Shown: positions 4,435-61,362 of the stretch, piece after piece | How positions within the stretch are numbered: position 1 is the first letter of the stretch | Layout: each line of letters opens with the position of its first letter | Assembly: GCA_022703645.1 (NCBI GenBank) | Contig: JAKLDG010000001.1 | Location: 338,814-402,813 of the forward strand | DNA length: 64,000 nt | From: Patescibacteria group bacterium | GTDB lineage: Bacteria; Patescibacteriota; JACPGU01 | Reading direction: 5' to 3' | The notes under the pieces: generated by a model | What the model was told of the DNA's origin: nothing | Databases searched by the model: none | Seen by the model: only the letters and a program-made list of their open reading frames with translations | Translations under genes and position numbers: made by a program

Positions 4435-4526
4435 AGATATTATACCCCCCTTGTTTTTTTTAAATGAGCATCAAATAAAAAATAAAAAACCAGCATTTTG
4501 GTTTTATTTGTGTTATGTAATTTATA

Positions 4527-5219: not shown

Positions 5220-5306
5220 TTGAAATTCGCTTTGCTGAAATTCTAAGAAATTGAGGAAATTCTAATATCTAATTTCTCCAATTTCTTTTAATTTCTATTA
5301 ATTTTA

Positions 5307-6152: not shown

Positions 6153-6160
6153 TTTATTAA

Positions 6161-6373
6161 TTATTTAGTTTTTGTTTTTACTTTACCGCTAGCAATACCG
6201 GGTTTCTTCATTTGTCTGCCATTATAAGTACCGCAAACTTTACACACTTGGTGTGATATTTTTGGTGACTTACATTTTGAACAAATAGAAACGCCTGCTA
6301 ATTTTACTTTGATATTCTGCCCTCTGCGACTCGCAGTACGGGACTTACTCATACGTTTTTTGGGTTCTGCCAT
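6161..6373 (-). CDS. rpmF: 50S ribosomal protein L32
   Basis: MAEPKKRMSKSRTASRRGQ...CSKCKSPKISHQVCKVCGTY: basic N-terminus plus CxxC...CxxC zinc ribbon typical of bL32. Confidence 0.75.
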   Translation of the reverse strand: MAEPKKRMSKSRTASRRGQNIKVKLAGVSICSKCKSPKISHQVCKVCGTYNGRQMKKPGIASGKVKTKTK

Positions 6374-6509
6374 AGCGTCAGGATCGCGTTAAACATTTCC
6401 AGCGATCTTATTCTCCTTGATTAAATTAATATTCTGTTAACTAATACATTTTACAATAAAATAAAACTTAAGTAAACCCCTTAGAATCCATTTGTATTTT
6501 ACGCTTTTA

Positions 6510-6545
6510 GTAAAAAAACCGCCTTTTGGGGCGGTTGGGGTTTTT
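6510..6545 (-). terminator. rho-independent terminator (AACCGCCCC-aaaa-GGCGGTT + T-run on minus strand)
   Basis: GC-rich stem with A-run/T-run flanks between transposase gene and rpmF. Confidence 0.55.
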
Positions 6546-6578
6546 AATTCCAATTTTCTCAAAACTATTTTACGTTTT

Positions 6579-7040
6579 CTAAGCTCTTTTTGCAATATTC
6601 TTAGGGTTATTCATATCCCGACCCCACGTTGATGGATTTGATTCTATATAAGAATAAATTTCATCGTAAGATTTTTCATTGCGGATAATGTGTTCATAAT
6701 AGTTGCGTTGCCAGATACGATTTTCAAATGGTATTAATATATTTTGTTTAACCCCATCAATGCATTTTTTCGTTGTTAGTGATTTAAAACGTTGAATTAT
6801 TTGCGGCAATGACAGTTGTTTTTCTGTAGGGGCAAACCCCCGTGTTTGCCCGTTTTTAATTGGGCGGACACAGGGGTCCGCCCCTACGATACAGATAATC
6901 AAATGTATATGATTTGGCATAACAGAAAATATATCTACCTCGATATTTGAATAATACTTTGGGATTTCTTCTATCGTTTGGAAAATTATTATCCCAATAT
7001 CATTCAATCTCATCCCTCCATCAACAATTTCTCCGAACAA
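6579..7040 (-). CDS. IS200/IS605-like tyrosine transposase with RAYT-like C-terminal motifs, N-terminally disrupted copy (nonsense at codon 2 of the full-length frame; TTG internal start)
   Basis: HxH motif (MPNHIHLI), C-terminal WQRNYYEHIIRNE...YIESNP resembling the RAYT tyrosine-helix motif; full frame extends to ATG ~7145 but codon 2 is TAA; paralog at 20626..21183. Confidence 0.6.
   Translation of the reverse strand: MFGEIVDGGMRLNDIGIIIFQTIEEIPKYYSNIEVDIFSVMPNHIHLIICIVGADPCVRPIKNGQTRGFAPTEKQLSLPQIIQRFKSLTTKKCIDGVKQNILIPFENRIWQRNYYEHIIRNEKSYDEIYSYIESNPSTWGRDMNNPKNIAKRA
6826..6887. repeat. REP-like doublet: GTAGGGG-[GGGCAAAC..GTTTGCCC]-spacer-[GGGCGGAC..GTCCGCCC]-CTAC, embedded in-frame in transposase ORF
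   Basis: two GC-rich 8-bp-stem hairpins bracketed by GTAGGGG/CCCCTAC inverted termini, ~60% GC in ~35% GC background; translated as ...VGADPCVRPIKNGQTRGFAP... Confidence 0.7.
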
Positions 7041-7160
7041 ACACCCTCTATCTTGTGTACATATTGTAATAAAATAATCTCCGGGTTCGGAATAATCATA
7101 ACCTTTTATTCGTATTGACCTTCTGTTTTTGTTTTCTTTTTACATTAGAACAATTGAGAA

Positions 7161-15849: not shown

Positions 15850-16347
15850 TTGCATAAAAATACTATGTATAAAAAAGAAAAAAAAGAGGTTGACAAAAAA
15901 TTACTTGCCGAAGATAGGGCTGGTGGTTTTAAATGTATTAACTGCGGACAGTGGGTAAACTTGGCCGACAGCATCGGCACGGCGCATCGCAACCACTGTC
16001 CATTTTGTTTTTGCTCCTGTCATGTTGACCGCGATAAAAGCGGGGATCGCAGATCTGATTGTTTTGGAAAAATGAAACCAATCGGATTAACTTTCAAAAA
16101 TGAAGGTTTTGATAAATATGGCAAAAAACGCCAAGGCGAGCTGATGTTTATTCATCAATGTACCAATTGCGGTAAAATATCAATTAACCGCATAGCGGGG
16201 GATGACGATGAGAAAGGGATTATGAGATTATTTGAAGAGTCGCAAAAAATAGATCCAAAGATTATTGGTGAAATAGAGAAGGAGGGGATTGTGGTTTTAC
16301 GCGAAAAAGATCGGCAAGCATTAATAAAACAATTGCCAAGTATATAA
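15850..16347 (+). CDS. RNHCP-domain zinc-ribbon protein (start possibly at second ATG 15865)
   Basis: conserved ...HRNHCPFC...CHVD... and second CxxC pair (CTNCG) resembling the RNHCP domain family by motif only; function unknown. Confidence 0.45.
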   Translation: MHKNTMYKKEKKEVDKKLLAEDRAGGFKCINCGQWVNLADSIGTAHRNHCPFCFCSCHVDRDKSGDRRSDCFGKMKPIGLTFKNEGFDKYGKKRQGELMFIHQCTNCGKISINRIAGDDDEKGIMRLFEESQKIDPKIIGEIEKEGIVVLREKDRQALIKQLPSI

Positions 16348-16378
16348 AAACCCTCGTAGTAATCCCACGAGGGTTTTT
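16347..16378. terminator. bidirectional terminator (CCCTCGT-loop-ACGAGGG + T5) between convergent genes
   Basis: 7-bp GC stem, A-run before and T-run after. Confidence 0.65.
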
Positions 16379-16391
16379 GAAACTTTATAGT

Positions 16392-17141
16392 TTAATTATT
16401 TAATCTGGTTCCTCCGACGACCCCATCAGAGTTAATTGTGGCTGAAGAAACTATTCTTGCAGTAGCGGTGTTAATAAGAAGGGCTGTGCTTGTTACATAT
16501 TTAGTTCCAACAATATAATCCCAGCCATCATTCTCATCGACTGTGTCGGTATTTCTGATGTAAACAATGCAATCATAATCTTTCTCTCTGACCGACTTTC
16601 GCGCGTAAGCGTAAGCTCTCGAAAAGGAATCGCTGTTGGAAGTTTTTGCTCTCTGATCCGCATTGGCCATAATCAAATAGATCTCATATTTTGAGTCAAA
16701 AACTACGGCATGATCTGCCCCTCTGATTTCAGCCTTGGTGGAAGCGGAAAAAGTTATAGCTCCGCTAGAGAGAAAAAATGGCGCCCTTCCCACAACATTA
16801 ACCCCGATTATTTTTGAATACTTGCCGGTGGTATAGTTGAGATAATAGACGCTAATTTGATCGTCCCAACTGGGAGACCCTGATTCGCGAAAGACGAAAA
16901 GCGCGTTTTTGCTCCCTGAAATCTTTAAGTCCGTTACTCCAAAACTACTCAGTCTTTCTTTTTCTGTTTCTTCAACAAATTGCGTATAAGGCTTGATAAA
17001 AGTTATTTGTTTCGCGCCATCGAACAGCTGCCAGAAACCGTTTCCGTCGCGTTTGCGTTCAAGCTTCGCTGATGAGCTGGTTGCGCAAGTGGTGATGAGC
17101 ACGATGACTGTAAGGACTGCAAATAACCATTTGCTTTTCAT
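16392..17141 (-). CDS. secreted hypothetical protein
   Basis: ORF track; signal peptide MKSKWLFAVLTVIVLITTCATSSSA; beta-rich. Confidence 0.5.
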   Translation of the reverse strand: MKSKWLFAVLTVIVLITTCATSSSAKLERKRDGNGFWQLFDGAKQITFIKPYTQFVEETEKERLSSFGVTDLKISGSKNALFVFRESGSPSWDDQISVYYLNYTTGKYSKIIGVNVVGRAPFFLSSGAITFSASTKAEIRGADHAVVFDSKYEIYLIMANADQRAKTSNSDSFSRAYAYARKSVREKDYDCIVYIRNTDTVDENDGWDYIVGTKYVTSTALLINTATARIVSSATINSDGVVGGTRLNN

Positions 17142-17231
17142 TATTATTGTCTCCTTTTTTAAGATTGCACGGGCTTTCCCGAATACATAAATATTAGCAA
17201 AAAATGGCTATAAATGCAAGTAAATTATAAA

Positions 17232-17270
17232 ATTAAAAGTGGCTTGACGTTTTGGCGTCAAGCCACCTAA
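17232..17270 (-). terminator. rho-independent terminator (GTGGCTTGACG-ttttgg-CGTCAAGCCAC)
   Basis: perfect 11-bp stem; T-rich run on minus strand. Confidence 0.7.
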
Positions 17271-17292
17271 GAACCGTGATAAAAAAATAAAT

Positions 17293-17886
17293 TTATTTTT
17301 CAAGATCATCAATCATTTTGTCGCATTCTTTTCTAATTAATTTGATACCATTATTGCCCTTAGTATTAAGGCAACGTGTGTCAACTTTGTAGGATGATTC
17401 GCAAATTGTAGCTGCACAACCAGAACCGAGTAAGTCGAAGGTCGGTTCTTCTTTGGAATTAAGGCAAAGGTCTATCTTTTTCATAAGCATATAAGCATTC
17501 TTGCAAGATGGCTCTACTCTGTACGCTATCGACACTGGCTTTTTTGCATTATTGCTCAAGTTTCTCAACATTTTAATGCTTTTATCTTGAGAATTCTTAA
17601 TCTGTTTTACCTTTCCGTTAATTTCTTTCGTAGTATTATATAATTCATCAATTTTCTGCGACTGTTCAGGCGTAAAACCTATGCCGAACATGCCCGTGCT
17701 AATGATATCATTACCATTATGCGTGATCCTGTTCATAATTTTACTATGCGCAATAAATGGTATCGCCGGAATCATCAAAATAAAAGCGATAATGACAATC
17801 AATGCTCCGATAGGAAACTTATTCATTTTCACCTCATTCACCTCTATGAGTAGAATTGTATCCTCCAACTGGAGGAGGCCAAACAT
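17293..17886 (-). CDS. hypothetical membrane-anchored protein with 6 Cys in ectodomain (true start probably MNKFPIGAL.. at ~17826)
   Basis: ORF track; TM anchor then Cys-containing soluble domain. Confidence 0.45.
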   Translation of the reverse strand: MFGLLQLEDTILLIEVNEVKMNKFPIGALIVIIAFILMIPAIPFIAHSKIMNRITHNGNDIISTGMFGIGFTPEQSQKIDELYNTTKEINGKVKQIKNSQDKSIKMLRNLSNNAKKPVSIAYRVEPSCKNAYMLMKKIDLCLNSKEEPTFDLLGSGCAATICESSYKVDTRCLNTKGNNGIKLIRKECDKMIDDLEK

Positions 17887-18087
17887 TTATATAAGCGAAA
17901 AAATCTTCGCGTTGAACTGATTGTTAGGGTACAAATGTTACACTCGTAATATTATCATTTTTATTTAACATTGTCAAGCCTTTCGTATAATATTCTCGAT
18001 CATATTGCATTATTCACTTATAATCCGCTTTTTGCTTGCGAACCGAACAGAAATATGAGATGATAAAAAGAAAACAAAAATTATAAA

Positions 18088-18507
18088 ATGAAATTCCACA
18101 GAACAAAATTAAACAAATTAGTTGGTAGCACATACCCTGAAGTTTACAGAAATTCACAAACCTTTTATAAGAAAATAGTAAGTAAATCAAAACGAAGACC
18201 TTATATTCGCTCAATATATTTTAATAAGGAGAAAATATTTTTAGGAATATTCTGGCCGCATTTATTTCAAAAAGTCGGATGGGGAGATAGAGAAAGACGG
18301 CTAAAATTATTCCCATGCGCAATAGATCTAATGCAAAATACAAAATTCAATCCAGAATCGAAAGATAACCCAAATAAAAAGTCTGAAATTTTACATCGAT
18401 TTTATGGAATCACTCCGGATGATGAAAAATTTTGTGTACAAGTCAAGGAGGATAAGAAAACCGATGAAAAATTTTTTGTTTCGGTATTCCCATACGATGA
18501 CAAATAA
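18088..18507 (+). CDS. hypothetical protein
   Basis: ORF track only; basic, no recognised motif. Confidence 0.35.
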   Translation: MKFHRTKLNKLVGSTYPEVYRNSQTFYKKIVSKSKRRPYIRSIYFNKEKIFLGIFWPHLFQKVGWGDRERRLKLFPCAIDLMQNTKFNPESKDNPNKKSEILHRFYGITPDDEKFCVQVKEDKKTDEKFFVSVFPYDDK

Positions 18508-18612
18508 AAAAGAATCTCCGCCCAAAAGTGTAGTGTATAAACTACGGCTGAAATTCTCTTTATGCGATAAGTATATATCAAATCTCAATTTTTGTCAACA
18601 ACTTTTTGTCAA

Positions 18613-18646
18613 ATAAAAAAGCATCGGATTTCTCCGATGCTTTTTA
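18613..18646. terminator. bidirectional terminator (GCATCGGA-tttc-TCCGATGC flanked by A6/T5)
   Basis: perfect 8-bp stem between convergent genes. Confidence 0.7.
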
Positions 18647-18665
18647 AAATTTAAAAAAATTAAAT

Positions 18666-19361
18666 CTATTTCGTCGGGATCACGCCGACCATGAAACCTG
18701 TTTCCAACGAATCGCCCTTCCTTTTCTGGAAATACGGTCCGACGTTGAAAATAAATCCGTCGGTTACGATAGCCCCTGTCATGCGGATATCCGTCGTATG
18801 ATTCTTGCTCCGGGATACTTCCACCAACGGCAATTTTTTGCCGGCATAGGAGAATCCGATAATCGAATCGTTCGCGCTTTTTTTCACGTCCATCGTGGAA
18901 AAAACTGTGAGACTGGTCAGAGCTTTCGGCGAATATCTACCCGTCACTCTTACCGTACCGCCTTTTTGCAGCGGCATCAAAACGCCGATACCCGCGCCGT
19001 TCGCGTGGTAATCAACCGCGGTCGTGTGTGTAATCACGGTCGGACCGCCCGTCACCTGCAGAGACATCGTGTAAATCGTCGCGTCCACGCGGCTTCCGAG
19101 CTTCGCGCTCAAAGAGATGTGGTTGCCGGAAAGCATGTCGCGGAAAACGTACTGTTTCACACCGACGCATGCTTTACCATTGAGTACATTCAGGTTCCCG
19201 AAGACGATTTTGCTGCCTCCGTCAGGAATCGAGTAGTACTGCACCAGCGAGGGCATTACTCTGTAGAAAGCCGTGGCGTCCGCTTCGTTGTAGGCGAACG
19301 CTTTCGCTGAAACGAAGAGCAATCCGAACACAAACAACATAAACAGCTTTTTCATAACCAA
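18666..19361 (-). CDS. secreted hypothetical protein (GC-rich gene, ~50% GC)
   Basis: signal peptide MVMKKLFMLFVFGLLFVSAKAFA; beta-rich; compositional outlier; the R-rich antisense ORF 18798..19310 is a GC artefact. Confidence 0.5.
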   Translation of the reverse strand: MVMKKLFMLFVFGLLFVSAKAFAYNEADATAFYRVMPSLVQYYSIPDGGSKIVFGNLNVLNGKACVGVKQYVFRDMLSGNHISLSAKLGSRVDATIYTMSLQVTGGPTVITHTTAVDYHANGAGIGVLMPLQKGGTVRVTGRYSPKALTSLTVFSTMDVKKSANDSIIGFSYAGKKLPLVEVSRSKNHTTDIRMTGAIVTDGFIFNVGPYFQKRKGDSLETGFMVGVIPTK

Positions 19362-19513
19362 TCTCCTTTGAAAGGTATTTTGTTAAACAACTTTGTTTGT
19401 CCTTGTGGACACCATAATAATAGCACATTTTTGGCTCTATGTCCAGACTTTTCCTCTCTTGCGCGGATTGTTGAAATGTTGTATATTACAAAAACAATAA
19501 ATAATAAATTCAT

Positions 19514-19837
19514 ATGGGAAATACAGACGAACAAAAAGATAGTATTATGGATGATGAAAAATTCATTAATTTCATGGAATCAAGAGATGAAAAACTTGTA
19601 GATTTTTTAACTACTAAATTCGGCGCAATCGATGGTAGATTTGAGAAAATCGAAGGACGTCTCGATAGAATCGAAACAACTATGGTTACAAAATCCTTTC
19701 TTACTGATGTAATGGCAAATTTCAGAGTTGAAACAAACGAAAAAGTATATAAAACCGTAGAGATTTTGAAAGAGAAGAAAGTTTTTGATGATAAAGATAT
19801 AAAGAGGGTAAAAGAGGCGGGCGTTGCAGTAAAATAG
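19514..19837 (+). CDS. hypothetical coiled-coil protein
   Basis: ORF track; heptad-like charged pattern. Confidence 0.4.
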   Translation: MGNTDEQKDSIMDDEKFINFMESRDEKLVDFLTTKFGAIDGRFEKIEGRLDRIETTMVTKSFLTDVMANFRVETNEKVYKTVEILKEKKVFDDKDIKRVKEAGVAVK

Positions 19838-19859
19838 ATTTTTGGGATATTTTTATTAA

Positions 19860-19900
19860 AAAAACAACCGCGAAGGCTAAAGCCTTCGCGGCGTTGTGTT
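19860..19900. terminator. terminator-like hairpin CCGCGAAGGC-taaa-GCCTTCGCGG between convergent genes
   Basis: perfect 10-bp GC-rich stem; flanking A-run. Confidence 0.55.
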
Positions 19901-19911
19901 TCAAGAGAAAT

Positions 19912-20508
19912 TTAGGGTTGATTCTGCTCGGGGTGGTCCCAATCCTTTCCGTAGATTTCCGCATTGGGAATGTTTGCGAAATTCTGCCCCTTGGGATAGC
20001 GGCGCGCCGCCATGAACTGCGAAATAGTCATCTTTGTGTTTATCGGTGTGGCATTTGATGACTTTCTCCAACGGTCCATCTCCGAAAAGTACTGCATTTG
20101 GACGCCAGAGAATTCCTCACTGTCGCCGGATCGCCATTTGCAGGTTACTCTGCCGTCTGGGATGGTTTCGCAGTCGTACGCGAGACCAACGGCAGTGAAA
20201 AGATCGTCTTTTGACAGAGATACTGTGAAATGGTGACCGCTCTCGATATCCTCTGCGCTGAGCGTGCGGGTCTTGCAGTGTTTGTTAAGTCCTATCCATT
20301 CGGGATCTTTCAGCCCGCAGTCAGACCCGACCAGAGTGTAGTAGTAGCGGCCGGTCTTGGGTGAATCCGTGCGTTCCATGGACTTTTCCGTTCTAATGAG
20401 CATCAGGACAACTAAAATTAAAATACCCGTAGCAAGCATGGAAAATAGCACTATTCGTTTCATTTCTTTCACCTCGATTTTTCCCATTTTTGGGAGATTT
20501 GCCCGCAT
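19912..20508 (-). CDS. secreted Cys-containing hypothetical protein (GC-rich; likely true start MKRIVLFSML at ~20463 preceded by GAGGTG)
   Basis: signal peptide after internal Met; ~50% GC. Confidence 0.5.
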   Translation of the reverse strand: MRANLPKMGKIEVKEMKRIVLFSMLATGILILVVLMLIRTEKSMERTDSPKTGRYYYTLVGSDCGLKDPEWIGLNKHCKTRTLSAEDIESGHHFTVSLSKDDLFTAVGLAYDCETIPDGRVTCKWRSGDSEEFSGVQMQYFSEMDRWRKSSNATPINTKMTISQFMAARRYPKGQNFANIPNAEIYGKDWDHPEQNQP

Positions 20509-20625
20509 AAATGCGGGGGATATTGCAGATTGTTATGGTGCAAAATAATACATTTATAATTATATCATAGATAACGCGATGTGTCAAGTACTTTTGTAGG
20601 TGTTGGCAATTATAAATTCATGGTA

Positions 20626-21183
20626 TTTTTCCTTAAAATATTCTTAGGATTATTGCTGTCTCGTTCCCACATTTGCGGATTGGATTCTATGTAACTATAA
20701 ATTTCATCGTACGATTTTTCATTGCGAATGATGTGTTCGTAATAGCCGCGTTGAAAAATGGGGTTGCCTGTTTTGTCTAAGATAATATTTATCTTTTTCG
20801 TTGATTGATATTTAAAATACCCAATTATTTGTCCTAATGTTGGTTTTTTATCCCGTAGGGGCGGGGTCTCCCCGCCCTGAATTAAATTGTTTTTGTTACC
20901 TACAAATATCGTTTTTCTCTTCTAATATCCGCAATATAAAATGAATATGATTTGGCATTATCTGAAAAATATCTAATTTTGTATTTGGGAAATGATTCGG
21001 AATTTCGTACCAACATTTTTCTGCAACATTTCCAATCTTATTTAATTCCATTTTCCCATCCACAATTTCCCCAAACAAACATTCTCTGTCTTTTGTGCAG
21101 ATCGTAACAAAATAATCTCCAGGTTCGGAATAATCATATTCTTTAATCCGTATCGATTTTCTATTTCGTTCGATTTTTGACAT
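20626..21183 (-). pseudogene. IS200/IS605-like tyrosine transposase with RAYT-like motifs, second copy, frameshifted: N-terminal part 20896..21183 intact, C-terminal part (~20626..20850) in +1 frame
   Basis: N-terminal 95 aa aligns with copy 1 upstream frame (..EPGDYFVTICTKDRECLFGEIVDG..HIHFIL); downstream DNA ~85% identical to copy 1 3' half encoding ...GYYEHIIRNEKSYDEIYSYIESNP; stop and REP hairpin intervene. Confidence 0.65.
20855..20877. repeat. REP-like single hairpin GGGGCGGGG-tct-CCCCGCCC preceded by GTAG, at the break point of the second transposase copy
   Basis: GC-rich palindrome with GTAGGGG terminus like other REP copies. Confidence 0.6.
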
Positions 21184-21352
21184 TTTTATTTTGATTATAG
21201 CATATTTTCATTTCCCTCTTGACAAACACTATGATTTTGTAGTAAAATAATGGCTATGTAGGCTATTTTTCGTTTACATGCACGACCCTTAAAAACATAT
21301 TGAGTCAAATACTGTCCTCCTTGAGGGGACTATCAAACAAGGAGGCAACACA

Positions 21353-22270
21353 ATGTCTGAAAACGGAAGGAAGGAAAGATTCGAGGAACTGATGGAAATG
21401 TACGTTGATTACTCAAATGTAGAATGTTTCCCAGAAAGGATAAGGCGGGAGCTTTCATCTACGGAACCTTATGACGAGGATCTTATAAAGTTTTTTAAAC
21501 AAAACTCGCCTGTGGCTGGAGAGATCGCAACAAACCCTGCAAGCGATTTCATAACTCGAACTGTTTACGCTTCTACTCTGCCACAGATGCCGCCTCGTTA
21601 TTCAATTGACGACCTGCTTGTTTATAGCCCTGGCGGCCGCGCACTATTTAACCGGTTGCCAGCCGCAAGTAAAATACTCGCAAAATGGATAACCGAACAC
21701 GAATCGTGCGACATAGTAGACCTCGGAGGCGGTTCCGGTTCTTACGCATTTAAGACAATAGAAATATTGTCAAAAATGAAAGGGTTCAATTCGATCGTCA
21801 AAAGGATTTCATGGACAAGCGTAGATATTGACTCCGGCGCAATCGAACTCGGTAAGGCACGGTCTAAAGCTGATGGACTTACGGGACAAGTTTTTTTCGA
21901 GGAAGGAAATTTTATGTCAAAAAAGTTTCCCACTATCGACGCAGACCTCGTAGTATTAATCGGTGTTCTATGTGGTATGACACCGGAGGTTGCGGTAACA
22001 TGCCTCGAAAAAGTGAGACGCTTTATCGAAACGCGTAACGGCGAAATTTACGCTGCTACACTTCTGACTAGGAGTTTTGAAGAGGATCCGATATGCTTCA
22101 GAATCTTCGCGAAACTCGGCTGGCATCTCAAACCGAAAACCGAGGAAGAGGTCAGAAAGGTCTTTAATGATGCCGGATACGAAATTATCGACATCCACAG
22201 TGAGCGCGACACGGAGACAGAAAGAGTCCCCGGGCAGTACGCAATTGTCAGAGCGCGTTTAAAAGCTTAA
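21353..22270 (+). CDS. class I SAM-dependent methyltransferase
   Basis: motif I DIVDLGGGSGSYAF; GGAGG Shine-Dalgarno; ~44% GC. Confidence 0.55.
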   Translation: MSENGRKERFEELMEMYVDYSNVECFPERIRRELSSTEPYDEDLIKFFKQNSPVAGEIATNPASDFITRTVYASTLPQMPPRYSIDDLLVYSPGGRALFNRLPAASKILAKWITEHESCDIVDLGGGSGSYAFKTIEILSKMKGFNSIVKRISWTSVDIDSGAIELGKARSKADGLTGQVFFEEGNFMSKKFPTIDADLVVLIGVLCGMTPEVAVTCLEKVRRFIETRNGEIYAATLLTRSFEEDPICFRIFAKLGWHLKPKTEEEVRKVFNDAGYEIIDIHSERDTETERVPGQYAIVRARLKA

Positions 22271-22343
22271 TACTAAAAAAACATCTTTTATTACAATCCC
22301 AACTTTGTTATAATTCTATTATAACTTAGGAGGGATTGTTTTT

Positions 22344-24521
22344 ATGTATTTGTATTTTGCATTTACAGGATTATTTAATGCTATAGTTAGCACTTTATTA
22401 GGTATTTTTGTATTTTTCAATAATTCAAAAAACAATATTAATCGCTCGTTTGCTCTTTTCTGTTTATTTTTTACGATGTGGTCTGCCGCATATATATTTT
22501 GGCCATTATCGCAAAACGCTGAAGGTACACTTTTGTCTTTTAGATTACTGCATATTGGCGCTGCTTATGTTTCTGTTGCTTATTTACATTTTGTTTGTAA
22601 TTTCCTGGATGTATATAAGCAAAAAAAAGTAATAGTTATAATTGGATATATTTTAGCATCTATACTAGTTCCATTTATTTTCACTCCATATTTTATTGCT
22701 GATATGGTTCCAATATTCTCAATGCGCTTTTGGGCAGTTCCTGGGATATTGTACCATTTTTATCTTGTGCACTTTTTTGGATATTTTGCATATTCGTCTT
22801 ATTTGTTATTTAAAAGTTATAAAAAATTATTGGGAGTAAAAAAGGTCCAAATTCTATATATTTTAGTTGGTTTTGTTTTGGCTTTTTTCGGGGGATCAAC
22901 AAACTATTTTTTATGGTATAAAATTAATATACCTCCTTATCTCAATATTCTTGCTTGTTCATTTGTAGTATTTACTGCCTACGCGATTGTAAAGACGCGG
23001 TTTTTAGACATCAAATTCGTTCTTCGTTCCTCTTTTGTTTACATTTCATCTCTTATTACAATTATTATCCCTGCAGTATTAATTAAGTTTATTGTTGGTG
23101 GGGAATCAGTTTTTAAAGCAACTGGATGGATTGATCTAATCATTGTTATTTTTGCCATTGCTGTATTTCCAAAAGTTAAAGAATATTTTTACAAAATCGC
23201 GAATAAGTATTTTTTCTCATCACTCTATGATAGCGCCGAAGTGATTGCAGACCTGTCTGATAAACTGCGATCAACCCTTGATATAAATAAAATTGATGAC
23301 TATATTACGAATGCTTTAATCCAAGCATTTCATTGCAAAGCGATTGGAATTTTGAATTATTCCAGAAGAACCGGGGACTACAACCTTGTCCATAATAAAG
23401 GGTTTGCGTTCAAGGGAAGAAAGAGATTTCTCGGCGATAAGGGATTGCACAAAAAATATGTTATGAAAGATGAACCTTTCCTGACATCCGAAATTAGAGA
23501 TAATCGCAAATATAAAAAGACGGTTTCTGTATTGGAAAAATTTGACGTAGAAGTTTTAACGCCGTTAAACGTTAAAGATAAGACAATCGGCCTTATCGCA
23601 ATCGGAGCAAAAGAATCCGGTGATTCATATAATCAACAGGATATTGAGCTTTTGGGAATTGTCAGCGCGCAGTCGGCAATTGCTATTGAAAACGCTATTT
23701 TATATGAAAAAACACGCAGATTTACAAAAACTCTGCAAGTAAAGGTTGATAATGCAACGGCTCAAATTCGCCACAAGAATGAAGAATTGAAAAAACTCGA
23801 TAAGCTCAAAGACGAATTTATTTCCGTCGCCAGCCATCAGCTGCGAACTCCGCTGACCGCCACGCGCTGGGCGCTGGAATTTCTGATTAAAGATAATAAA
23901 GGAAAACTCAACCGCAAACAGCTTGAGAGCGTTCATGAGCTGGAAGACACAAATTCAAAACTTATAAAACTCGTCAATTCACTTCTGAATGTCTCCCGTA
24001 TTGACGAGGGACGCCTTTCTATCACGCCAGTACCAACTGACATAGTTGCCGTGATGAAAGAAATCATGCATGAATTTGAACCGATTGCGCGCCACAAGAA
24101 TTTGAAAGTTATCACACACTATGATAAATTGCCAAAAATCAAATTTGATCCTGTTGTTATTAATAAAGCGATACATAACTTCGTTTCAAACGCGATAAAA
24201 TATAATAAAGACGAAGGCCGTCTTTGGATAAATGTCGAGAAATATGATAAAGATAATCTGGTTATCAAGGTTCGCGACGAGGGAATCGGAATACCAAAAG
24301 CCGAGCAGGCAAATCTATTTGCGAAATTTTACAGAGCATCTAATGCTGCTACTTCAAATACCGAAGGAACCGGACTTGGACTTTATATTGCCAAAAGCGC
24401 CGTAGAAAGCTCCGGAGGAAAGGTTTGGTTCGAATCAAAAGAAAATGAAGGGACAACTTTCTTTGTGACATTACCACTGAAAGGCAGTAGGGCGAAGAGA
24501 GGAGAAAAGAGCCTGGTCTAA
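22344..24521 (+). CDS. sensor histidine kinase: N-terminal polytopic membrane domain (~7 TM), GAF-like domain, HisKA, HATPase_c
   Basis: H-box FISVASHQLRTPLTA, N/G boxes (KYNKDEGRLWI, GTGLGLYIAKS); hydrophobic first 270 aa. Confidence 0.8.
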   Translation: MYLYFAFTGLFNAIVSTLLGIFVFFNNSKNNINRSFALFCLFFTMWSAAYIFWPLSQNAEGTLLSFRLLHIGAAYVSVAYLHFVCNFLDVYKQKKVIVIIGYILASILVPFIFTPYFIADMVPIFSMRFWAVPGILYHFYLVHFFGYFAYSSYLLFKSYKKLLGVKKVQILYILVGFVLAFFGGSTNYFLWYKINIPPYLNILACSFVVFTAYAIVKTRFLDIKFVLRSSFVYISSLITIIIPAVLIKFIVGGESVFKATGWIDLIIVIFAIAVFPKVKEYFYKIANKYFFSSLYDSAEVIADLSDKLRSTLDINKIDDYITNALIQAFHCKAIGILNYSRRTGDYNLVHNKGFAFKGRKRFLGDKGLHKKYVMKDEPFLTSEIRDNRKYKKTVSVLEKFDVEVLTPLNVKDKTIGLIAIGAKESGDSYNQQDIELLGIVSAQSAIAIENAILYEKTRRFTKTLQVKVDNATAQIRHKNEELKKLDKLKDEFISVASHQLRTPLTATRWALEFLIKDNKGKLNRKQLESVHELEDTNSKLIKLVNSLLNVSRIDEGRLSITPVPTDIVAVMKEIMHEFEPIARHKNLKVITHYDKLPKIKFDPVVINKAIHNFVSNAIKYNKDEGRLWINVEKYDKDNLVIKVRDEGIGIPKAEQANLFAKFYRASNAATSNTEGTGLGLYIAKSAVESSGGKVWFESKENEGTTFFVTLPLKGSRAKRGEKSLV

Positions 24522-24529
24522 AGTAAATT

Positions 24530-24563
24530 AAAAATTAAAAATCAAAATGTAAAATGACAGATG
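24530..24563. repeat. AT-rich inverted-repeat arm (R orientation) of IVS-like element; contains start codon of 24554 gene
   Basis: reverse complement CATCTGTCATTTTACATTTTGAT... identical over 23 nt to arm at 26941. Confidence 0.6.
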
Positions 24564-24919
24564 CAAATTTTAAAAATGAATTTAAGAAAAGATTGTACTC
24601 GTTCGTTTTACGATTAATTAAATATATAAATAGTCTCCCAAGATCACAATCAAACGATGTTATAGGAAAACAACTGTTAAGAAGTGGTACGAGTATATTG
24701 GCTAATTTTATAGAAGCTAATTCAGCCAGCAGTAAAAAAGATTTTACGAACTTTTTTAATCATAGCTTAAAATCTGCCAATGAATCAAAGGTTTGGTTAA
24801 CACTTTTCCGCGATACAAACCCTATAAACAATGAGAATGTTTTTTTGATAAAAGAACTTTGCGAGATTGCAAACATCTTAGCATCAAGTATATTAACTTT
24901 AAAAGGAAAAAAGAAATAA
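24554..24919 (+). CDS. four-helix-bundle protein (TIGR02436 / '23S rRNA intervening-sequence protein' family)
   Basis: family-typical LLRSGTSILANFIEANSASSKKDF...HSLKSANESKVWL; 121 aa. Confidence 0.7.
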   Translation: MTDANFKNEFKKRLYSFVLRLIKYINSLPRSQSNDVIGKQLLRSGTSILANFIEANSASSKKDFTNFFNHSLKSANESKVWLTLFRDTNPINNENVFLIKELCEIANILASSILTLKGKKK

Positions 24920-24980
24920 TTTTACATTTATTATATGTCATTTTGATTTTTGACATTTACATTTTACATTACATATTTTA
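24920..24980. repeat. AT-rich inverted-repeat arm (F orientation) of IVS-like element
   Basis: TGTCATTTTGATTTTTGACATTTACATTTTACATT, related to arms at 26941 and 30648. Confidence 0.55.
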
Positions 24981-25047
24981 ACCTTTAAATTATCGATAAA
25001 TTATGCTAATATTACTATAATTTACAAAAACTAAGCAAACCGACACT

Positions 25048-26397
25048 ATGATTAAAGTATATAATACACTTTCAAGGTCTAAAGAAGAATTCAAACCTAT
25101 CGAAGAAGGTGAAGTTGGCATCTATTCTTGTGGACCTACGGTTTACAACTTTGTTCACATTGGGAACTTAAGAGCATATATTTTTGCTGATATATTGCAC
25201 AGAACTTTCCTTTACAACGGATATAAGGTGAAACACATAATGAATATTACTGATGTTGATGATAAAACGATTCGTGATTCTCGATCCAATGGGTTGACAC
25301 TAAAAGATTTTACAGACAGATATACTACGAGTTTCTTTGAAGATTTAGAAAAATTAAATATTAATAAAGAAGAATATATCTTTCCACGCGCAACTGAAAA
25401 TATTGATGGTATGGTGAAACTAATCAAGAAGCTTTTGGATAAAGGGTTTGCTTATAAAGCAGAAGATGGATCAATATATTTTGCTATTTCGAAATTCAAA
25501 GACTATGGTAAACTGTCCGGTGTCGATTTTGAACGCGACACTAAATCGAGAATATCAAATGATGAATATGCAAAAGATGAGGCGCATGATTTTGCTCTTT
25601 GGAAGGCTTGGGACGAGAAAGATGGGGATGTTTTTTGGGAAACAGATATTGGTAAAGGTAGGCCCGGTTGGCACATAGAGTGTTCAGTAATGTCTGAGGA
25701 TAACCTTGGACAGCCCTTTGATATTCATACTGGTGGAATTGATCTTATATTCCCTCATCATGAGAATGAGATTGCGCAATCTGAAGCTGCTAATGAAAAA
25801 ACTTTTGTAAATTATTGGATGCACAATGAAATGTTAATGGTTGATGGACAAAAGATGAGCAAGTCACTAAAAAACGATTACCGACTGAATGATATTATTG
25901 AAAAAGGTTATGAACCCTTAGTTTTTCGCTATTTAATGCTTTTTACGGGATATAATCAGAAACTTAACTTTACCTGGGATGCTCTAGAAGCGGCAAAAAA
26001 TGGTCTGGGCAATCTAAAAAATAAGATTTTATTATTAGGAAATGATATAGGGGAGGTTAGCGCAAGTCTTGTTGATGATTTCAAAAATGAGATTAACGAT
26101 GATCTTAATACTCCGAAGGCTCTCGCAGTCCTACAGGAAGTCTTGAAATCAGATATTACAAATGCGGATAAGCTCGCAACGGTTCTTGATTTTGATAAAG
26201 TTTTAGGATTACGGCTCGATGAAGTAAAATCAGAAACCATCGATATTCCGGAGGATGTGATTAAATTTGCAGAAGATAGAAAAAATGCTAAACAGGAAAA
26301 AAACTTTGAGCTTGCAGATAGTCTTCGCGCAAAGATAAGCGAAGCCGGATATGAGGTAGAAGATACGAAAGATGGTTATAGGGTTGTGAGAAGATAG
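25048..26397 (+). CDS. cysS: cysteinyl-tRNA synthetase
   Basis: CGPTVYNFVHIGN (HIGH), KMSKS, Zn-binding Cys/His pattern; 449 aa. Confidence 0.9.
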   Translation: MIKVYNTLSRSKEEFKPIEEGEVGIYSCGPTVYNFVHIGNLRAYIFADILHRTFLYNGYKVKHIMNITDVDDKTIRDSRSNGLTLKDFTDRYTTSFFEDLEKLNINKEEYIFPRATENIDGMVKLIKKLLDKGFAYKAEDGSIYFAISKFKDYGKLSGVDFERDTKSRISNDEYAKDEAHDFALWKAWDEKDGDVFWETDIGKGRPGWHIECSVMSEDNLGQPFDIHTGGIDLIFPHHENEIAQSEAANEKTFVNYWMHNEMLMVDGQKMSKSLKNDYRLNDIIEKGYEPLVFRYLMLFTGYNQKLNFTWDALEAAKNGLGNLKNKILLLGNDIGEVSASLVDDFKNEINDDLNTPKALAVLQEVLKSDITNADKLATVLDFDKVLGLRLDEVKSETIDIPEDVIKFAEDRKNAKQEKNFELADSLRAKISEAGYEVEDTKDGYRVVRR

Positions 26398-26464
26398 ATA
26401 CATTTGTAATTTGTCATTCAAATCCATTATGCTATAATCAAGCTATTAGAAATAAACAAAAACT

Positions 26465-26857
26465 ATGCCAACAAAAACCATAAAGAAAAAAAAGAAAGTC
26501 GCCATACTTGAAGATGATAAAATGCTGAATAAATATCTTGCGGCGAGTTTTGCGAAAGAGGGGACTTATGATGTTTGCGCGGCGCTAAATGGGGAAGAGG
26601 GGATAGCGATGATAAAAAAAGAAATGCCTGATCTAGTGCTTTGTGATATCATAATGCCAAAGAAAAACGGTTTTGAGGTTCTTGAAGCGGCAAAAAAAGA
26701 CGCGAAAACGAAAAAAATAATTTTTATAATGTTATCAAATCTTTCCCAAGAATCTGACGTGAAACAAGCAAAAAAAATGGGGGCAAAAGATTTTTGGCTG
26801 AAAGTAGATTTCGATACGGAGGCGATAGTAAAAAAAGTTAAAGATATTTTAAAATAA
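26465..26857 (+). CDS. single-domain response regulator (CheY-like receiver)
   Basis: ILEDD..., phospho-acceptor D in DLVLCDIIMP, conserved Lys region; 130 aa. Confidence 0.8.
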   Translation: MPTKTIKKKKKVAILEDDKMLNKYLAASFAKEGTYDVCAALNGEEGIAMIKKEMPDLVLCDIIMPKKNGFEVLEAAKKDAKTKKIIFIMLSNLSQESDVKQAKKMGAKDFWLKVDFDTEAIVKKVKDILK

Positions 26858-26880
26858 CTTTTTTAACTTAAATAAAAAAT

Positions 26881-26985
26881 TAAAAATCAAAGTGCAAAAA
26901 ATTGGGGTTCCTGCGGAATGATATCTAATTTTTAATTTTACATCTGTCATTTTACATTTTGATATTTACATTTTACATTGCATGG
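26881..26985. repeat. IVS-like AT-rich inverted-repeat pair (R...F, ~35-bp spacer, 'empty' copy)
   Basis: AAAAATCAAAGTGCAAAAAATT ... CATCTGTCATTTTACATTTTGATATTTACATTTTACATT. Confidence 0.55.
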
Positions 26986-28724: not shown

Positions 28725-28897
28725 GGGTCCAATTTTTAATTTTATAATTTTTAATTTTTAAAATTGTCTAAAAAAACACGTACCAAAACCAAAACTTCAA
28801 CCATAACTGGTGTTCAAATGGGGCTTCTCATTTCGACTATTTTTATTATAGTTGGACTTTTTTATGCTGTTTTTAGCTTTTTTCAATAAAATAACAG

Positions 28898-30548: not shown

Positions 30549-30574
30549 AGTTTTATTATTATATCATAAAAACA

Positions 30575-30676
30575 TATCAAAATGCAAATATCAAAGTGTA
30601 AAATGACAAATTAAAATTAAAAATGTATAATATGCCAAAGGCATACCAAAATTTTACATTTTGATTTTTAAATTTT
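30575..30676. repeat. IVS-like AT-rich inverted-repeat pair (R...F, 'empty' copy) in divergent promoter region
   Basis: ATATCAAAGTGTAAAATGACAAATT ... AAATTTTACATTTTGATTTTT; central TATGCCaaaGGCATA palindrome. Confidence 0.55.
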
Positions 30677-30685
30677 AAATTTATC

Positions 30686-31450: not shown

Positions 31451-31626
31451 GGGCGCAAAATTTTAAGCCCTTTTTTTGGGGCGTTATGTGTAGCATTCCT
31501 ACAAAACCGTTCTTTCTTTGGCTTTTATAACGTAAAATTAACCATGCGCTTTATATTGGACTTTTTTTAAATTTAGCATAGAATAGGAGATAAGAAAACA
31601 AAAAAGCAATAAATCAATAAATCAAA

Positions 31627-36047: not shown

Positions 36048-36707
36048 ATGAAATTAAAAAGATCATTTTTTAATCGCGATACAAATATAGTTGCGCAAGA
36101 GCTTCTCGGCAAAAAAATTGTCCGGGTTCTGCCTGATGGCAGTAGAATTGAGGCTATTATAACCGAAACCGAAGCTTATCATGGATTTGATGATAAAGCC
36201 TCTCACGCAAGCCGCGGTAAAACTGAAAGGAATAAAGTGATGTTCGATAAGGCAGGGTTGGTTTATGTTTATTTAATCTATGGAATGCACTATTGTTTGA
36301 ACTTTACAACAATGGGAAAAGGGTTTCCAGCAGCAGTACTGATTCGAGCTGTTGCTCTCAAAATCCCAAATCATAAATCCCAATGTCCAAACAAATCTCA
36401 AACCCGAAATTCCAAGTTTAAAAATTTAGATTTTGAAAATTATTTAAAAATTACAAAATTAAAAATTAAAAACTTAACTCAAATAAACGGTCCTGGCAGA
36501 ACCTGTAAAGCGCTCCAAATTGATAAATCTCTTTATGGCGAAGATTTGGTTGCCAGTAATCATATTTGGATCGAACCTGTAGAAACACAGATTCGTGTGT
36601 CTAAAAAAATTATCTCATCAAAACGTATAGGAGTTGATTATGCGGGTGAATGTAAGAACTGGGAATGGAATTATAAAGTAGATGCGAAAGCGATAATATT
36701 GTGCTAA
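36048..36707 (+). CDS. DNA-3-methyladenine glycosylase (Mpg/AAG family) with a low-complexity internal insertion
   Basis: FFNRDTNIVAQELLGKKIV...ETEAYHGFDDKASHASRGKTERNKVMFDKAGLVYVYLIYGMHYCLN matches Mpg family; start moved from 36030 to ATG 36048 because 36030 lies inside the terminator. Confidence 0.7.
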   Translation: MKLKRSFFNRDTNIVAQELLGKKIVRVLPDGSRIEAIITETEAYHGFDDKASHASRGKTERNKVMFDKAGLVYVYLIYGMHYCLNFTTMGKGFPAAVLIRAVALKIPNHKSQCPNKSQTRNSKFKNLDFENYLKITKLKIKNLTQINGPGRTCKALQIDKSLYGEDLVASNHIWIEPVETQIRVSKKIISSKRIGVDYAGECKNWEWNYKVDAKAIILC

Positions 36708-57534: not shown

Positions 57535-57575
57535 AAACAATTAATCAAGAAAACAAAAAAAACAACAAATCAAAT

Positions 57576-61219: not shown

Positions 61220-61292
61220 AAATAACCAATACCCAATTGAATATTGAAAAATTGGATATTGATTGGATATTGGTCATTGGATATTAAACATT
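61220..61292. repeat. CCAATA/TATTGG palindromic repeat cluster (copy 3) in clpC 5' leader
   Basis: AACCAATACCCAATTGAATATT...AATTGGATATTGATTGGATATTGGTCATTGGATATT. Confidence 0.6.
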
Positions 61293-61362
61293 TTTATTCA
61301 AACAAAGTATTACTTAAATAAAATTTATATAGTAAGATTATAACTACAGGAGGATTAATTAT

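Follow-up and report, generated by a model that had tools for sequence, protein, structure and literature searches.

Element A, a discrete cassette of about 450 bp at about 24522-24971 of the window (the whole 64,000-nucleotide stretch of Patescibacteria DNA that was analysed), is a member of a widespread class of self-contained palindromic cassettes in which a PF05635 gene lies between two inverted heptamer arms of about 55 nt. It consists of an A-rich left arm, an ORF encoding a four-helix-bundle (4HB) protein and a T-rich right arm, which repeats the left arm in inverted orientation. The main structural feature of these elements, absent from the first-pass annotation of this DNA, is that their arms consist of heptanucleotides repeated in tandem, a property shared throughout the protein family. 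Two further elements, B (26866-26979) and C (30568-30683), have the same arms without the ORF and measure about 115 bp each; all three lie within 6.2 kb, and none occurs in the remaining 58 kb of the window. Element A is an IVS-type cassette outside rRNA and, in effect, the non-rRNA counterpart of an ORF-bearing 23S rRNA intervening sequence (IVS). The parts of the three elements are as follows.

24522-24553, plus strand: non-coding part of the element A left arm, A-rich with a 7-nt period (nhmmer left-arm profile, E 2.5e-07)
24554-24919, plus strand: 4HB gene (PF05635 / TIGR02436), 121 aa
24920-24975, plus strand: element A right arm, T-rich with a 7-nt period, starting at the stop codon
26866-26903, plus strand: element B left arm, 86% identical to 24519-24554
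26904-26925, no strand: element B centre, with a short G+C-containing hairpin tip (ttcc-tgc-ggaa) at 26908-26918
26926-26979, plus strand: element B right arm, holding a 23-nt exact reverse complement of 24541-24563 (nhmmer E 1.2e-05)
30568-30630, plus strand: element C left arm (nhmmer E 3.7e-05 and 7.2e-04)
30631-30645, no strand: element C centre, a small hairpin (tatgcc-aaa-ggcata)
30651-30683, plus strand: element C right arm, 94% complementary to 24525-24555

The neighbours of element A are a histidine-kinase gene and cysS. The left arm begins directly after the histidine-kinase stop codon (24519-24521), and its outer end is also where homology starts with three related loci (L006, L155 and L156), to which the arm is 85% identical and the upstream flank 19%. 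Inward, it runs on into the gene, the first ~12 codons of which (24554-24590) double as inner left arm. The right arm is an inverted repeat of the left arm plus codons 1-11, and its identity among relatives is 82-87%, with 34% in the downstream flank; it lies about 70 nt from the start of cysS and contains a promoter-like TTGACA-16-CATATT facing that gene (24950-24977).

The segment 24541-24563 (ATCAAAATGTAAAATGACAGATG), which spans the ATG and codons 2-3, matches 26941-26963 exactly in reverse complement, in agreement with the 23/23 match claimed earlier for the left arm; the 64-kb window has no exact inverted 23-mer pair other than this A-B pair. Exact inverted matches of at least 18 nt all join A to B or A to C, such as the 21-mer 24535-24555 / 30651-30671. 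Over longer stretches, A is 87% complementary to B across 47 nt (24529-24575 versus 26929-26975) and 94% complementary to C across 31 nt (24525-24555 versus 30651-30681), while its own arms are 74% complementary across 42 nt (24529-24570 versus 24918-24959). The inverted arm pairs reported at three loci are real: nhmmer profiles of each arm, derived from other genomes only and then run on the window, matched A (E 2.5e-07 to 3e-03), B (1.2e-05) and C (3.7e-05), with nothing better than E 0.02 elsewhere. The arms also beat shuffled controls, contrary to the possibility that they are generic AT-rich DNA matching no better than shuffled sequence. The 35-nt consensus offered for them fared less well, occurring as such only once (26945-26979; chance expectation none), with the other copies being diverged relatives; the AAAATGACA motif is present in both arms because the arms are palindromic. 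Other palindrome families with a 7-nt period and without a 4HB gene are present in the window (10104-10200, 15735-15849 and 61221-61298; 10492-10607; 11562-11690), and the arm profiles did not match them.

Element B lies between a response-regulator gene (end 26857) and a T2SSE ATPase gene (start 27021), with its hairpin tip in the place occupied by the ORF in element A. Element C lies between divergent genes, of the PspC family (minus strand, start codon 30548) and Exo_endo_phos (plus strand, start 30686), at gaps of 2 nt and 19 nt from the divergent start codons; its right arm stops 2 nt short of the ATG of the downstream gene, and its left arm contains a vestigial 5' end of the 4HB gene (GTG TAA AAT GAC AAA TTA AAA TTA AAA ATG, from 30596). 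The arms of B and C are separated by about 20-35 nt, consistent with the ~35 bp described before, whereas the vestigial 'MTDV' frame read in B proved to be the right arm in reverse. Both elements have the size and form of MITEs, being shorter than 300 bp, non-coding, bounded by terminal inverted repeats and present in multiple copies per genome, and the homology of their arms with the arms of the 4HB cassette extends to its first ~10 codons.

The identification of a 121-aa four-helix-bundle gene between the arms of element A was supported by profile HMMs, as the ORF exceeded the curated cut-offs of both PF05635 (E 2.8e-18, 66.5 bits, cut-off 33.8) and TIGR02436 (E 2e-22, 79.4 bits, cut-off 24). 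It is a member of the 23S-rRNA-IVS protein / Avd superfamily. The predicted monomer has an up-down four-helix-bundle fold like that of structures 2RLD, which has five chains per entry, and 2GSC. A helix-2 motif conserved in PF05635 proteins, R-x3-S-x3-N-x2-E (PMC3936711), is represented by R43, S47, N51 and E54, and among 42 homologues the last three residues are invariant and R43 is nearly so. The N-terminus is altered (MTDANFK where relatives have MQNDKAKFK) owing to a CAA-to-TAA change at ancestral codon 2 and a net gain of 1 nt, with an internal ATG serving as the present start; the ancestral ATG (24547-24549) sits in the left arm and is now directly followed by an in-frame TAA (24550-24552). 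A recombinase or transposase domain was not detected in the protein, which matched only PF05635 and related four-helix-bundle models. No PADLOC defence model matched it, and viral contigs queried with the protein and with the alignment contained no relatives.

Comparison with 69 loci from other genomes that carry relatives of the window 4HB gene revealed arms of ~55 nt with 7-nt periodicity, and nearly all of these loci have A-rich heptamer arrays upstream of the gene and complementary T-rich arrays downstream. The best autocorrelation lag was 7 in A (including its left arm), B, C and 94/114 arms of related loci, with values at this lag of 0.52-0.55 versus 0.37 in shuffled sequence, as is the case for tandem 7-nt units of the STRR type. 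In the CPR-type subfamily, the left arm covers the start codon and first ~10 codons and the right arm starts at the stop codon. The same cassette layout was found in at least six bacterial phyla, among them CPR bacteria, Planctomycetota, Cyanobacteria, Chloroflexota and Bacteroidota. On plasmids of Nostoc, Gloeocapsa, Planktothrix, Anabaena, Chlorohelix and Bernardetia, homologues with 33-42% amino acid identity sit between complementary heptamer arrays whose sequences are unrelated to the window heptamers; the Nostoc homologue lies between exact (AATTCGT)x4 and (TTACGAA)x4 arrays. Where one genome holds several paralogues, each of them has a heptamer unit of its own. Arm identity over all distant locus pairs is barely above the shuffled baseline, and clear conservation is confined to the close clade.

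Arms from the same locus match each other specifically in inverted orientation. The mean own-arm alignment score was 23.5, versus 17.0 in parallel orientation (p = 2.5e-10), 14.8 for 7-mer block shuffles and 18.9 for arms of other loci, and duplex energies were -34.8 kcal/mol for cognate, -29.5 for non-cognate and -22.5 for shuffled arms. One locus (L044) has a perfect 36-bp inverted repeat over codons 1-11. A 45-bp helix imposed by hand on 20 aligned elements was 74.5% paired, versus 42-65% in slid registers, and contained 16 pairs changed on both sides versus 11.0 +/- 1.6 in shuffles (1/500), with about half of the sequences pairing at variable heptamer positions; pairing in one ungapped register fixed by the ATG and stop codon did not succeed, as periodic arms can anneal in many different registers. 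An RNA-specific signature is missing, and this counts against an RNA model: G·U-type mismatches in the arms were not in excess over A·C-type mismatches (151 vs 168, p = 0.37), sense and antisense duplexes were equally stable (-34.8 vs -34.5 kcal/mol, p = 0.54), RNAalifold returned no consensus structure for 20 mini-elements, and single-sequence RNA folds were weak, A/U-rich stems (z for A, B and C = -0.99, -0.02 and -2.2). Arm complementarity is strand-symmetric.

Neighbours of 4HB loci are co-directional in 106/112 cases (95%), at a median gap of 26 nt upstream and 57 nt downstream; the arms fill this spacer, and their outer ends typically lie directly against the stop codon of the gene upstream and the start codon of the gene downstream. 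In a T4SS-like operon (L055), five consecutive junctions carry one element each within 4.2 kb. Relatives sharing 80-89% amino acid identity are found in four unrelated genomic contexts, and homology among close relatives covers the ORF and arms and stops at the outer arm ends (nucleotide identity of 82-87% in the arms, 50% at third codon positions and 19-34% in the flanks), which fits a moving unit. ORF-bearing and ORF-less forms coexist in other genomes, with four ORF-less copies in L055, two of them sharing an identical junction, and others in L053, L067 and L073. These copies are mostly similar to the arms of the 4HB copy in their own locus and, because they keep its first ~10 codons, they look like MITE-like deletion derivatives of the cassette. 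The earlier proposal that an ORF was gained or lost within a mobile element is in line with the coexistence of both forms and the varied contexts, although presence/absence polymorphism was not observed, five contigs of this organism being identical to the window. Metagenome cysS orthologues used in the search for an orthologous empty site were without synteny at their closest (69-79% amino acid identity, L075-L078), and no 4HB gene was present in 80 cysS loci (853 kb). Target-site duplications were not seen at the borders of four aligned L055 copies, where low-complexity borders make the evidence weak, and no recombinase genes accompany the cassettes.

Like the 23S rRNA IVSs of Leptospira and of Coxiella burnetii, the latter with the S23p ORF, element A places a PF05635 gene within stem-forming terminal inverted repeats that enclose insert and ORF, and it shares with them the existence of ORF-less versions and a sporadic distribution suggesting horizontal transfer (PMC4990558). 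Unlike these IVSs, which occupy helix 9, 25 or 45 of 23S rRNA, element A resides in a protein-gene spacer, outside any 23S or 16S rRNA helix, and its arms are heptanucleotide tandem arrays that overlap the first ~10 codons. PF05635 ORFs also occur in CPR rRNA insertions (10.1101/2024.02.27.582315), and a PF05635 gene is wedged between cmr3 and cmr2 (PMC3936711). RNase III excision of the stem has been shown for an ORF-bearing IVS (PMC4990558), and we infer by analogy that element A may be processed likewise. Scanning the window with Rfam and for tRNAs gave neither an rRNA nor a tRNA gene, and conserved rRNA motifs were absent from 162 loci; together with the true ORF-less homologues B and C, this supports the first-pass annotation in its view of an IVS-like cassette outside rRNA, between protein genes. 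No published description of this type of element was found.

The explanation that we prefer, at slightly better than even confidence, joins the cassette structure to read-through expression, an RNase III stem, arm-based DNA propagation and a 4HB protein acting in trans. The gene is probably expressed through read-through of the host operon, because neither a Shine-Dalgarno sequence nor a promoter placed for the ORF is seen in element A and most related loci are without a visible Shine-Dalgarno sequence. In the transcript, the arms would pair into a long imperfect stem, looping out the ORF and drawing the flanking host RNA together. This stem would be a substrate of RNase III, as in rRNA IVSs, and cleavage would free the cassette RNA from the host RNA, making insertion tolerable in operons and in rRNA. 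Propagation would take place at the DNA level, via the arms, because arm conservation exceeds that of synonymous sites and ORF-less pairs multiply in the genome. The 4HB protein is a likely trans-acting factor that would recognise its own heptamer arrays, since its nearest characterised homologue, Avd, is an RNA- and reverse transcriptase (RT)-binding pentamer.

Element C does not fit the read-through hairpin model because it lies between divergent genes that start 2 nt and 19 nt away; it more likely carries promoters for both. A near-consensus promoter-like ATGACA-17-TATAAT (11/12 positions) is present at 30603-30631, and each of the three elements has more promoter-like hexamer pairs than expected (13 vs 2.8, 7 vs 1.9 and 6 vs 2.3). 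The elements were rejected as intrinsic terminators, as a terminator scan gave no site in A or B and one marginal minus-strand site in C.

We know of no function for the 23S rRNA IVS-encoded protein since 1993, and bacterial heptanucleotide repeats such as STRRs have, to our knowledge, gone unexplained for equally long. The conserved cassette, with its paralogue-specific inverted heptamer arms and the ORF-less copies that it apparently sheds into operon junctions, would recast the rRNA IVS as one setting in which a general element occurs and would link a protein family to a repeat class. The long-unexplained PF05635 family would thereby become accessible to experiment in cultivable hosts; carriers include Nostoc punctiforme, Gloeocapsa PCC 7428, where the locus reads DUF1156 | 4HB | Swt1-HEPN, and Bacteroides thetaiotaomicron (BT_0352). 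For annotation, ORF-less palindromes of ~115 bp in CPR genomes are recognisable elements that break assemblies.

An alternative that is possible, though on balance unlikely, is a DNA system resembling REP/RAYT, in which the 4HB protein recognises its flanking heptamer arrays in duplex DNA or in the form of hairpins, extruded or single-stranded, and maintains or mobilises them, while ORF-less pairs are REPIN-like non-autonomous copies and the RNA stem is incidental. As in REP/REPIN systems with their RAYT, a single-copy gene lies within its own inverted cognate repeats, gene-less doublets are intergenic and the repeats are specific to each paralogue. The strand symmetry of arm complementarity and the conservation of arm sequence far beyond synonymous sites speak for such a system, and the perfect inverted repeats of L044 (36 bp) and Nostoc (4 x 7 nt) suggest templated homogenisation of both arms. 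ORF-less copies resemble the arms of the 4HB copy in their locus and lie within a few kb of it, and ORF-less arm matches (E < 0.01) were found in 14/69 4HB-centred loci versus 4/80 cysS-centred loci, although this comparison is confounded because the genomes behind the 4HB-centred loci were also those used to train the arm profiles. However, RAYT is a Y1 HUH transposase of known catalytic mechanism, whereas the 4HB protein is a plain four-helix bundle without a known catalytic site or a transposase-like or nuclease motif, and its characterised homologue Avd acts as an RNA- and reverse transcriptase-binding adaptor rather than as a recombinase. REPs are short G+C-rich palindromes, in contrast to heptamer arrays with ORF-less copies that retain gene codons. 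The lack of target-site duplications and recombinase genes also argues against this alternative, and a purely DNA-level element would have no need of 95% co-directionality with its neighbours.

A bolder proposal, which we regard as rather doubtful, is that PF05635 4HB proteins are the missing trans partners of heptanucleotide palindromes (STRRs and their relatives), forming a self-maintaining or mobile element without a transposase. ORF-less copies may then be seeded nearby in operon junctions, with the rRNA IVS as one niche, and propagation could even proceed via an RNA intermediate, if Avd and its reverse transcriptase are taken as the model. Cyanobacterial STRRs (TAACTGA repeats, PMC4679880) and the heptanucleotide and octanucleotide paired sites of Geobacter (PMC2700814) resemble the arms described here in being intergenic tandem units, 7-nt in the heptanucleotide case, often just 5' of start codons and sometimes in inverted pairs. 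They differ in that the present arrays bracket PF05635 genes specifically, with mutually complementary flanks; the searchable literature contained no tie between STRR or Geobacter heptamer repeats and a protein family.

It is improbable that the host already had the palindromic heptamer arrays, as STRR- or REP-like elements that perhaps serve as divergent-promoter or mRNA-punctuation modules, with the 4HB ORF as a lodger entering their loops or being swapped from one to another and empty copies as unoccupied targets. The 7-nt-period palindromes of the window that lack a 4HB gene would be accommodated by this idea, as would the enrichment of promoter-like sites in the arms and the requirement that C serve two divergent genes, and in Geobacter metallireducens IS110-family insertions often interrupt paired tandem-repeat sites (PMC2700814, supplementary file 5). 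Nevertheless, ORF-less copies keep the gene's own first ~10 codons, homology between genomes takes in both ORF and arms and goes no further than the outer arm ends, arm profiles match A, B and C rather than the other palindromes of the window, each paralogue has its own arms, and no insertion machinery is encoded. Chance resemblance among AT-rich intergenic or promoter DNA, for which one might cite AT-rich spacers in a genome of 33-44% G+C and unimpressive single-sequence fold z-scores, can hardly be credited at all, as it is already refuted by the sole exact inverted 23-mer pair, by cross-genome profiles that match these sites only, by arms that far outscore shuffled, block-shuffled and parallel-orientation controls, and by arm identities of 82-87% against 19-34% in the flanks.

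Several other known systems bear comparison with these elements. Correia (NEMIS) elements of Neisseria are intergenic palindromes of ~100-150 bp that are co-transcribed with their neighbours, may carry promoters and form hairpins that RNase III cleaves. Elements B and C resemble these and other bacterial MITEs as small intergenic palindromes; Correia elements differ in having TA target duplications and no 4HB-encoding master copy, while the window elements have heptamer substructure and no detectable duplication. The window protein is not the accessory Avd of DGRs (PDB 4DWL, 8UB7), as its NF033474 score of 17.7 bits falls below the cut-off of 80 and a reverse transcriptase, template or variable repeat is not adjacent; no RVT-family gene was present among ten scanned neighbours or the genes called in the 20-kb locus. 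TIGR arrays have much longer repeat units and a Tas protein, and the 7-nt arm period led to rejection of TIGR-Tas. Integron attC sites were rejected as well, the neighbours being housekeeping genes rather than a cassette array.

The identical 121-aa protein was found on 11 metagenome contigs; five of these were compared with the window at the nucleotide level, and all five are 100% identical to it. Within element B, one metagenome contig of this organism breaks off.

Element A (24522-24971) is an intervening-sequence (IVS)-type palindromic cassette in a non-rRNA setting, accompanied by two MITE-like derivatives that lack its open reading frame (ORF), elements B (26866-26979) and C (30568-30683). 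The encoded protein matches PF05635 (23S_rRNA_IVP; E = 2.8e-18) and TIGR02436 ('four helix bundle protein'; E = 2e-22), and AF2 models it (pLDDT 90.4) as a four-helix bundle (4HB), to which 2RLD, 2GSC and the DGR protein Avd are the closest structures. It scores far under the cut-off of the Avd equivalog model and matches none of the defence-system models. Neither rRNA nor tRNA genes lie in the 64-kb window, which bears out the first-pass annotation's placement of the cassette between protein-coding genes.

22344-24521, plus strand: histidine-kinase gene, upstream neighbour of the 4HB gene
24554-24919, plus strand: 4HB gene, 121 aa, with PF05635 and TIGR02436 matches
25048-26397, plus strand: cysS, downstream neighbour of the 4HB gene
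24529-24575 and 26929-26975: arm match between A and B, 47 nt, 87% complementary
24525-24555 and 30651-30681: arm match between A and C, 31 nt, 94% complementary
Element A, its own two arms: 42 nt, 74% complementary

The layout of inverted arms is as the first-pass annotation described, but the 35-nt 'consensus' offered there is merely the B copy. The 23/23 match that it reported holds at every position, with 24541-24563 reverse-complementary to 26941-26963; this is the sole exact inverted 23-mer pair in 64 kb, and all exact inverted matches of at least 18 nt in the window are A-B or A-C. Because nhmmer arm profiles trained exclusively on other genomes find A, B and C in the window, where nothing else scores better than E = 0.02, the supposed empty copies B and C are indeed homologues of the cassette arms, and the other palindromes of the window are not. 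The arms consist of heptanucleotide repeats: for 94 of 114 arms, as well as for A, B and C, autocorrelation is highest at lag 7.

Comparison of the flanks of 69 loci from GTDB genomes showed relatives of the gene to be bracketed in the same way. Upstream, an A-rich array of ~7-nt units continues into ATG CAA AAT GAC AAA G.A AAA TTY AAA (MQNDKxKFK); its reverse complement, a T-rich array, follows the stop codon immediately. In the window copy this 5' end has been remodelled: next to the ancestral ATG (24547-24549) stands TAA, a codon that is CAA in relatives, and a net gain of 1 nt brings the internal ATG at 24554 into frame. Left arms scored against the reverse complement of their own right arms gave a mean of 23.5, compared with 17.0 in the parallel-orientation control (p = 2.5e-10), 18.9 for arms from other loci, 14.8 after 7-mer block shuffling and 11.0 after mononucleotide shuffling. 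When a 45-bp helix was imposed on 20 aligned 'mini-elements' (arms plus a short linker), 74.5% of it was paired, falling to 42-65% when the register was slid by 1-3 columns, and both sides had changed in 16 pairs, compared with 11.0 +/- 1.6 in shuffles (1/500). In locus L044 the inverted repeat is perfect over 36 bp and takes in codons 1-11; in L011 codon 3 has changed synonymously from AAT to AAC, and the right arm mirrors this (TGTCATT to TGTCGTT).

The cassette relocates as a discrete unit. Four close relatives, window copy included (80-89% amino acid identity), occupy four different contexts: histidine kinase and cysS in the window, neighbours matching neither of these in L006, a gene of no known identity and RuvX in L155, and two MacB genes in L156. 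Their alignment is homologous from ~24522 to ~24971. Mean pairwise identity is 85% in the left arm and 82-87% in the right, compared with 50% at third codon positions of the ORF and 19% and 34% in the upstream and downstream flanks; thus, the non-coding arms are under purifying selection and travel with the ORF. In L156, the cassette has a MacB/FtsX permease gene on either side, and a DGR-type pair (bAvd and reverse transcriptase genes, 1345-2728) lies 1.3 kb upstream of it.

Neighbouring genes are co-directional with the 4HB gene in 106 of 112 cases (95%). Median distances are 26 nt from the upstream stop codon to the 4HB ATG and 57 nt from the 4HB stop to the downstream start codon; because the left arm extends ~30 nt into the ORF, both arms measure ~55 nt and fill the spacer between neighbours. 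No rRNA motifs were found in the loci examined. PF05635 ORFs have been recorded in CPR rRNA insertions (10.1101/2024.02.27.582315), and one wedged between cmr3 and cmr2 (PMC3936711) is consistent with the intergenic lodging seen here. An exception to the orientation rule is an Anabaena cylindrica plasmid (L168), where the gene sits in antisense orientation, with cas2 and cas1 as neighbours, and the arms have reversed polarity, T-rich upstream and A-rich downstream. In L015 (4509-4983), a left-arm-like segment precedes the 4HB ORF by ~400 nt, with a 117-codon ORF in between, and a similar sequence directly precedes the 4HB gene of L020; cassettes may be able to take up extra cargo.

Cognate arms form a stabler duplex (RNAduplex, -34.8 kcal/mol) than non-cognate (-29.5) or shuffled (-22.5) ones. 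No RNA signature was found in the arm complementarity: G·U-type mismatches (151) were not in excess over A·C-type (168; p = 0.37), sense and antisense duplex energies were equal (p = 0.54), single-sequence z-scores were weak and RNAalifold found nothing. That some members carry perfect arrays suggests DNA-level homogenisation of the two arms. Dependence of the cassette on host transcription is pointed to by co-directionality, by the lack of a visible Shine-Dalgarno sequence ahead of the ATG in most loci, by element A having no promoter positioned for transcription of the ORF and by the IVS precedent, in which RNase III excision of the homologous rRNA element was shown experimentally (PMC4990558). 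The anatomy, the protein's family membership, selection on the arms and relocation of the unit are established by the data; RNase III processing, a trans-acting role of the protein and the way of spread are inferred. All three elements show a 3-5-fold enrichment of promoter-like hexamer pairs. Element C, which occupies a divergent spacer and carries ATGACA-17-TATAAT (11/12 matches), complicates any single model.

ORF-less arm pairs are also present in the other genomes compared, namely in L055 (four copies), L053, L067 and L073. Each comprises a left arm, the first ~10 codons (e.g., ATGCAAAACAACAACGAAAAATTCAAAAG), a few bases and a right arm; their relation to the 4HB cassette is that of a MITE to its coding parent. 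Two L055 copies share an identical junction in different flanks. In a T4SS-like operon there (VirB4-like ATPase etc.; 3600-8700), an element lies at each of five consecutive intercistronic junctions; the 4HB gene is present in one of these elements, and the other four are ORF-less. ORF-less copies usually come closest in sequence to the arms of the 4HB copy at the same locus, which ranked 1-4 among 58 in 8 of the 13 cases. A, B and C all fall in a 6.2-kb stretch, and the remaining 58 kb of the window has no such element; since the sampled loci were gene-centred, such clustering near a 4HB copy is suggestive only. Arm-profile matches also lie directly upstream of cysS, as element A does, in distant CPR genomes whose CysS is 50-51% identical to the window's, as paired ORF-less arms (L153 1165-1317; L154 6835-6987) or a single overlapping left/right match (L143 2074-2140; L144 6832-6898); this position could be coincidence or a preferred site. 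A metagenome contig of this organism (L003, corresponding to window 14554-26974) stops within element B's right arm, indicating that these elements break short-read assemblies.

The identical 121-aa protein occurs on 11 metagenome contigs, and its homologues number >4000, in several CPR classes at 70-89% identity and in MAGs labelled Planctomycetota, Omnitrophota and Actinomycetota at 51-66%; none was found in the viral contigs searched. On plasmids, tblastn retrieved homologues at 33-42% identity in 30 records, 10 of which were inspected for flanks. These genes likewise lie between co-directional genes (DUF1156 / 4HB / Swt1-HEPN; helicase / 4HB / N6-methylase), flanked by inverted tandem heptamers unrelated in sequence:

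Nostoc flagelliforme: (AATTCGT)x4 ... ATG; TAA (TTACGAA)x4
Nostoc N6: (AATTCGC)x4; (TTGCGAA)x4
Gloeocapsa: TTTTAGATTTTAGATTT; TCTAAAATCTAAAATCC
Planktothrix: AATCGTA units; CGATTTA units
Chlorohelix: GAAGGATGAAGGATGAGCGATGAATT; AATTCATAATTCATCTTTCATC
Bernardetia: TTAGTGA units; TCACTAA units

The flank duplex was stabler than the shuffled mean, by 1.9 to 9.7 sd, in 8 of 10 plasmid loci. Repeats are present at the Treponema and Pseudanabaena loci but show no clear inversion. Paralogues of one genome each possess their own heptamer unit, complementary between both flanks (L058, L059, L035, L040). The cassette family is present in at least six phyla (Patescibacteria, Planctomycetota, Omnitrophota, Cyanobacteriota, Chloroflexota and Bacteroidota), and its defining, previously unremarked feature is the paralogue-specific pair of inverted heptanucleotide arrays; no published description of this architecture was found within the literature searched.

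Other repeats occur in the window. A second palindrome family with a 7-nt period and CCAAT / ATTGG units (e.g., TTGGATATTGGTCATTGG), present in at least three copies (10104-10200, 15735-15849, 61221-61298), is not matched by the 4HB-arm profiles, and among 154 loci ATTGGTCATTGG was found in this organism alone. Further intergenic palindromes of other periodic units lie at 10492-10607, 11562-11690, 5220-5306 and 28725-28775 (with 36443-36479), with a best lag of 7, or 10 at 5220-5306; that at 10492-10607 has T-rich-first polarity and, as in element C, a small G+C hairpin tip (gctatcgc-aaa-gcgatac). A-rich, G-poor arrays of ~8-nt period (AAATCAAGAAAACAAAAAATCAATAAAACAACAAATCAA; 643-727, 2318-2382, 31573-31626, 57538-57589) directly precede start codons, have neither partner arm nor Shine-Dalgarno sequence, and may be unstructured translation leaders. 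Two regions of ~550 bp, 14 kb apart (6594-7146 and 20637-21184), share duplicated stretches of 71-153 bp that are 72-82% identical and overlap minus-strand ORFs (6579-7040 and 20896-21183). Finally, within a 3677-aa ORF (46501-57534), a 106-nt stretch recurs every ~1.3-1.4 kb (53555, 54920, 56246).
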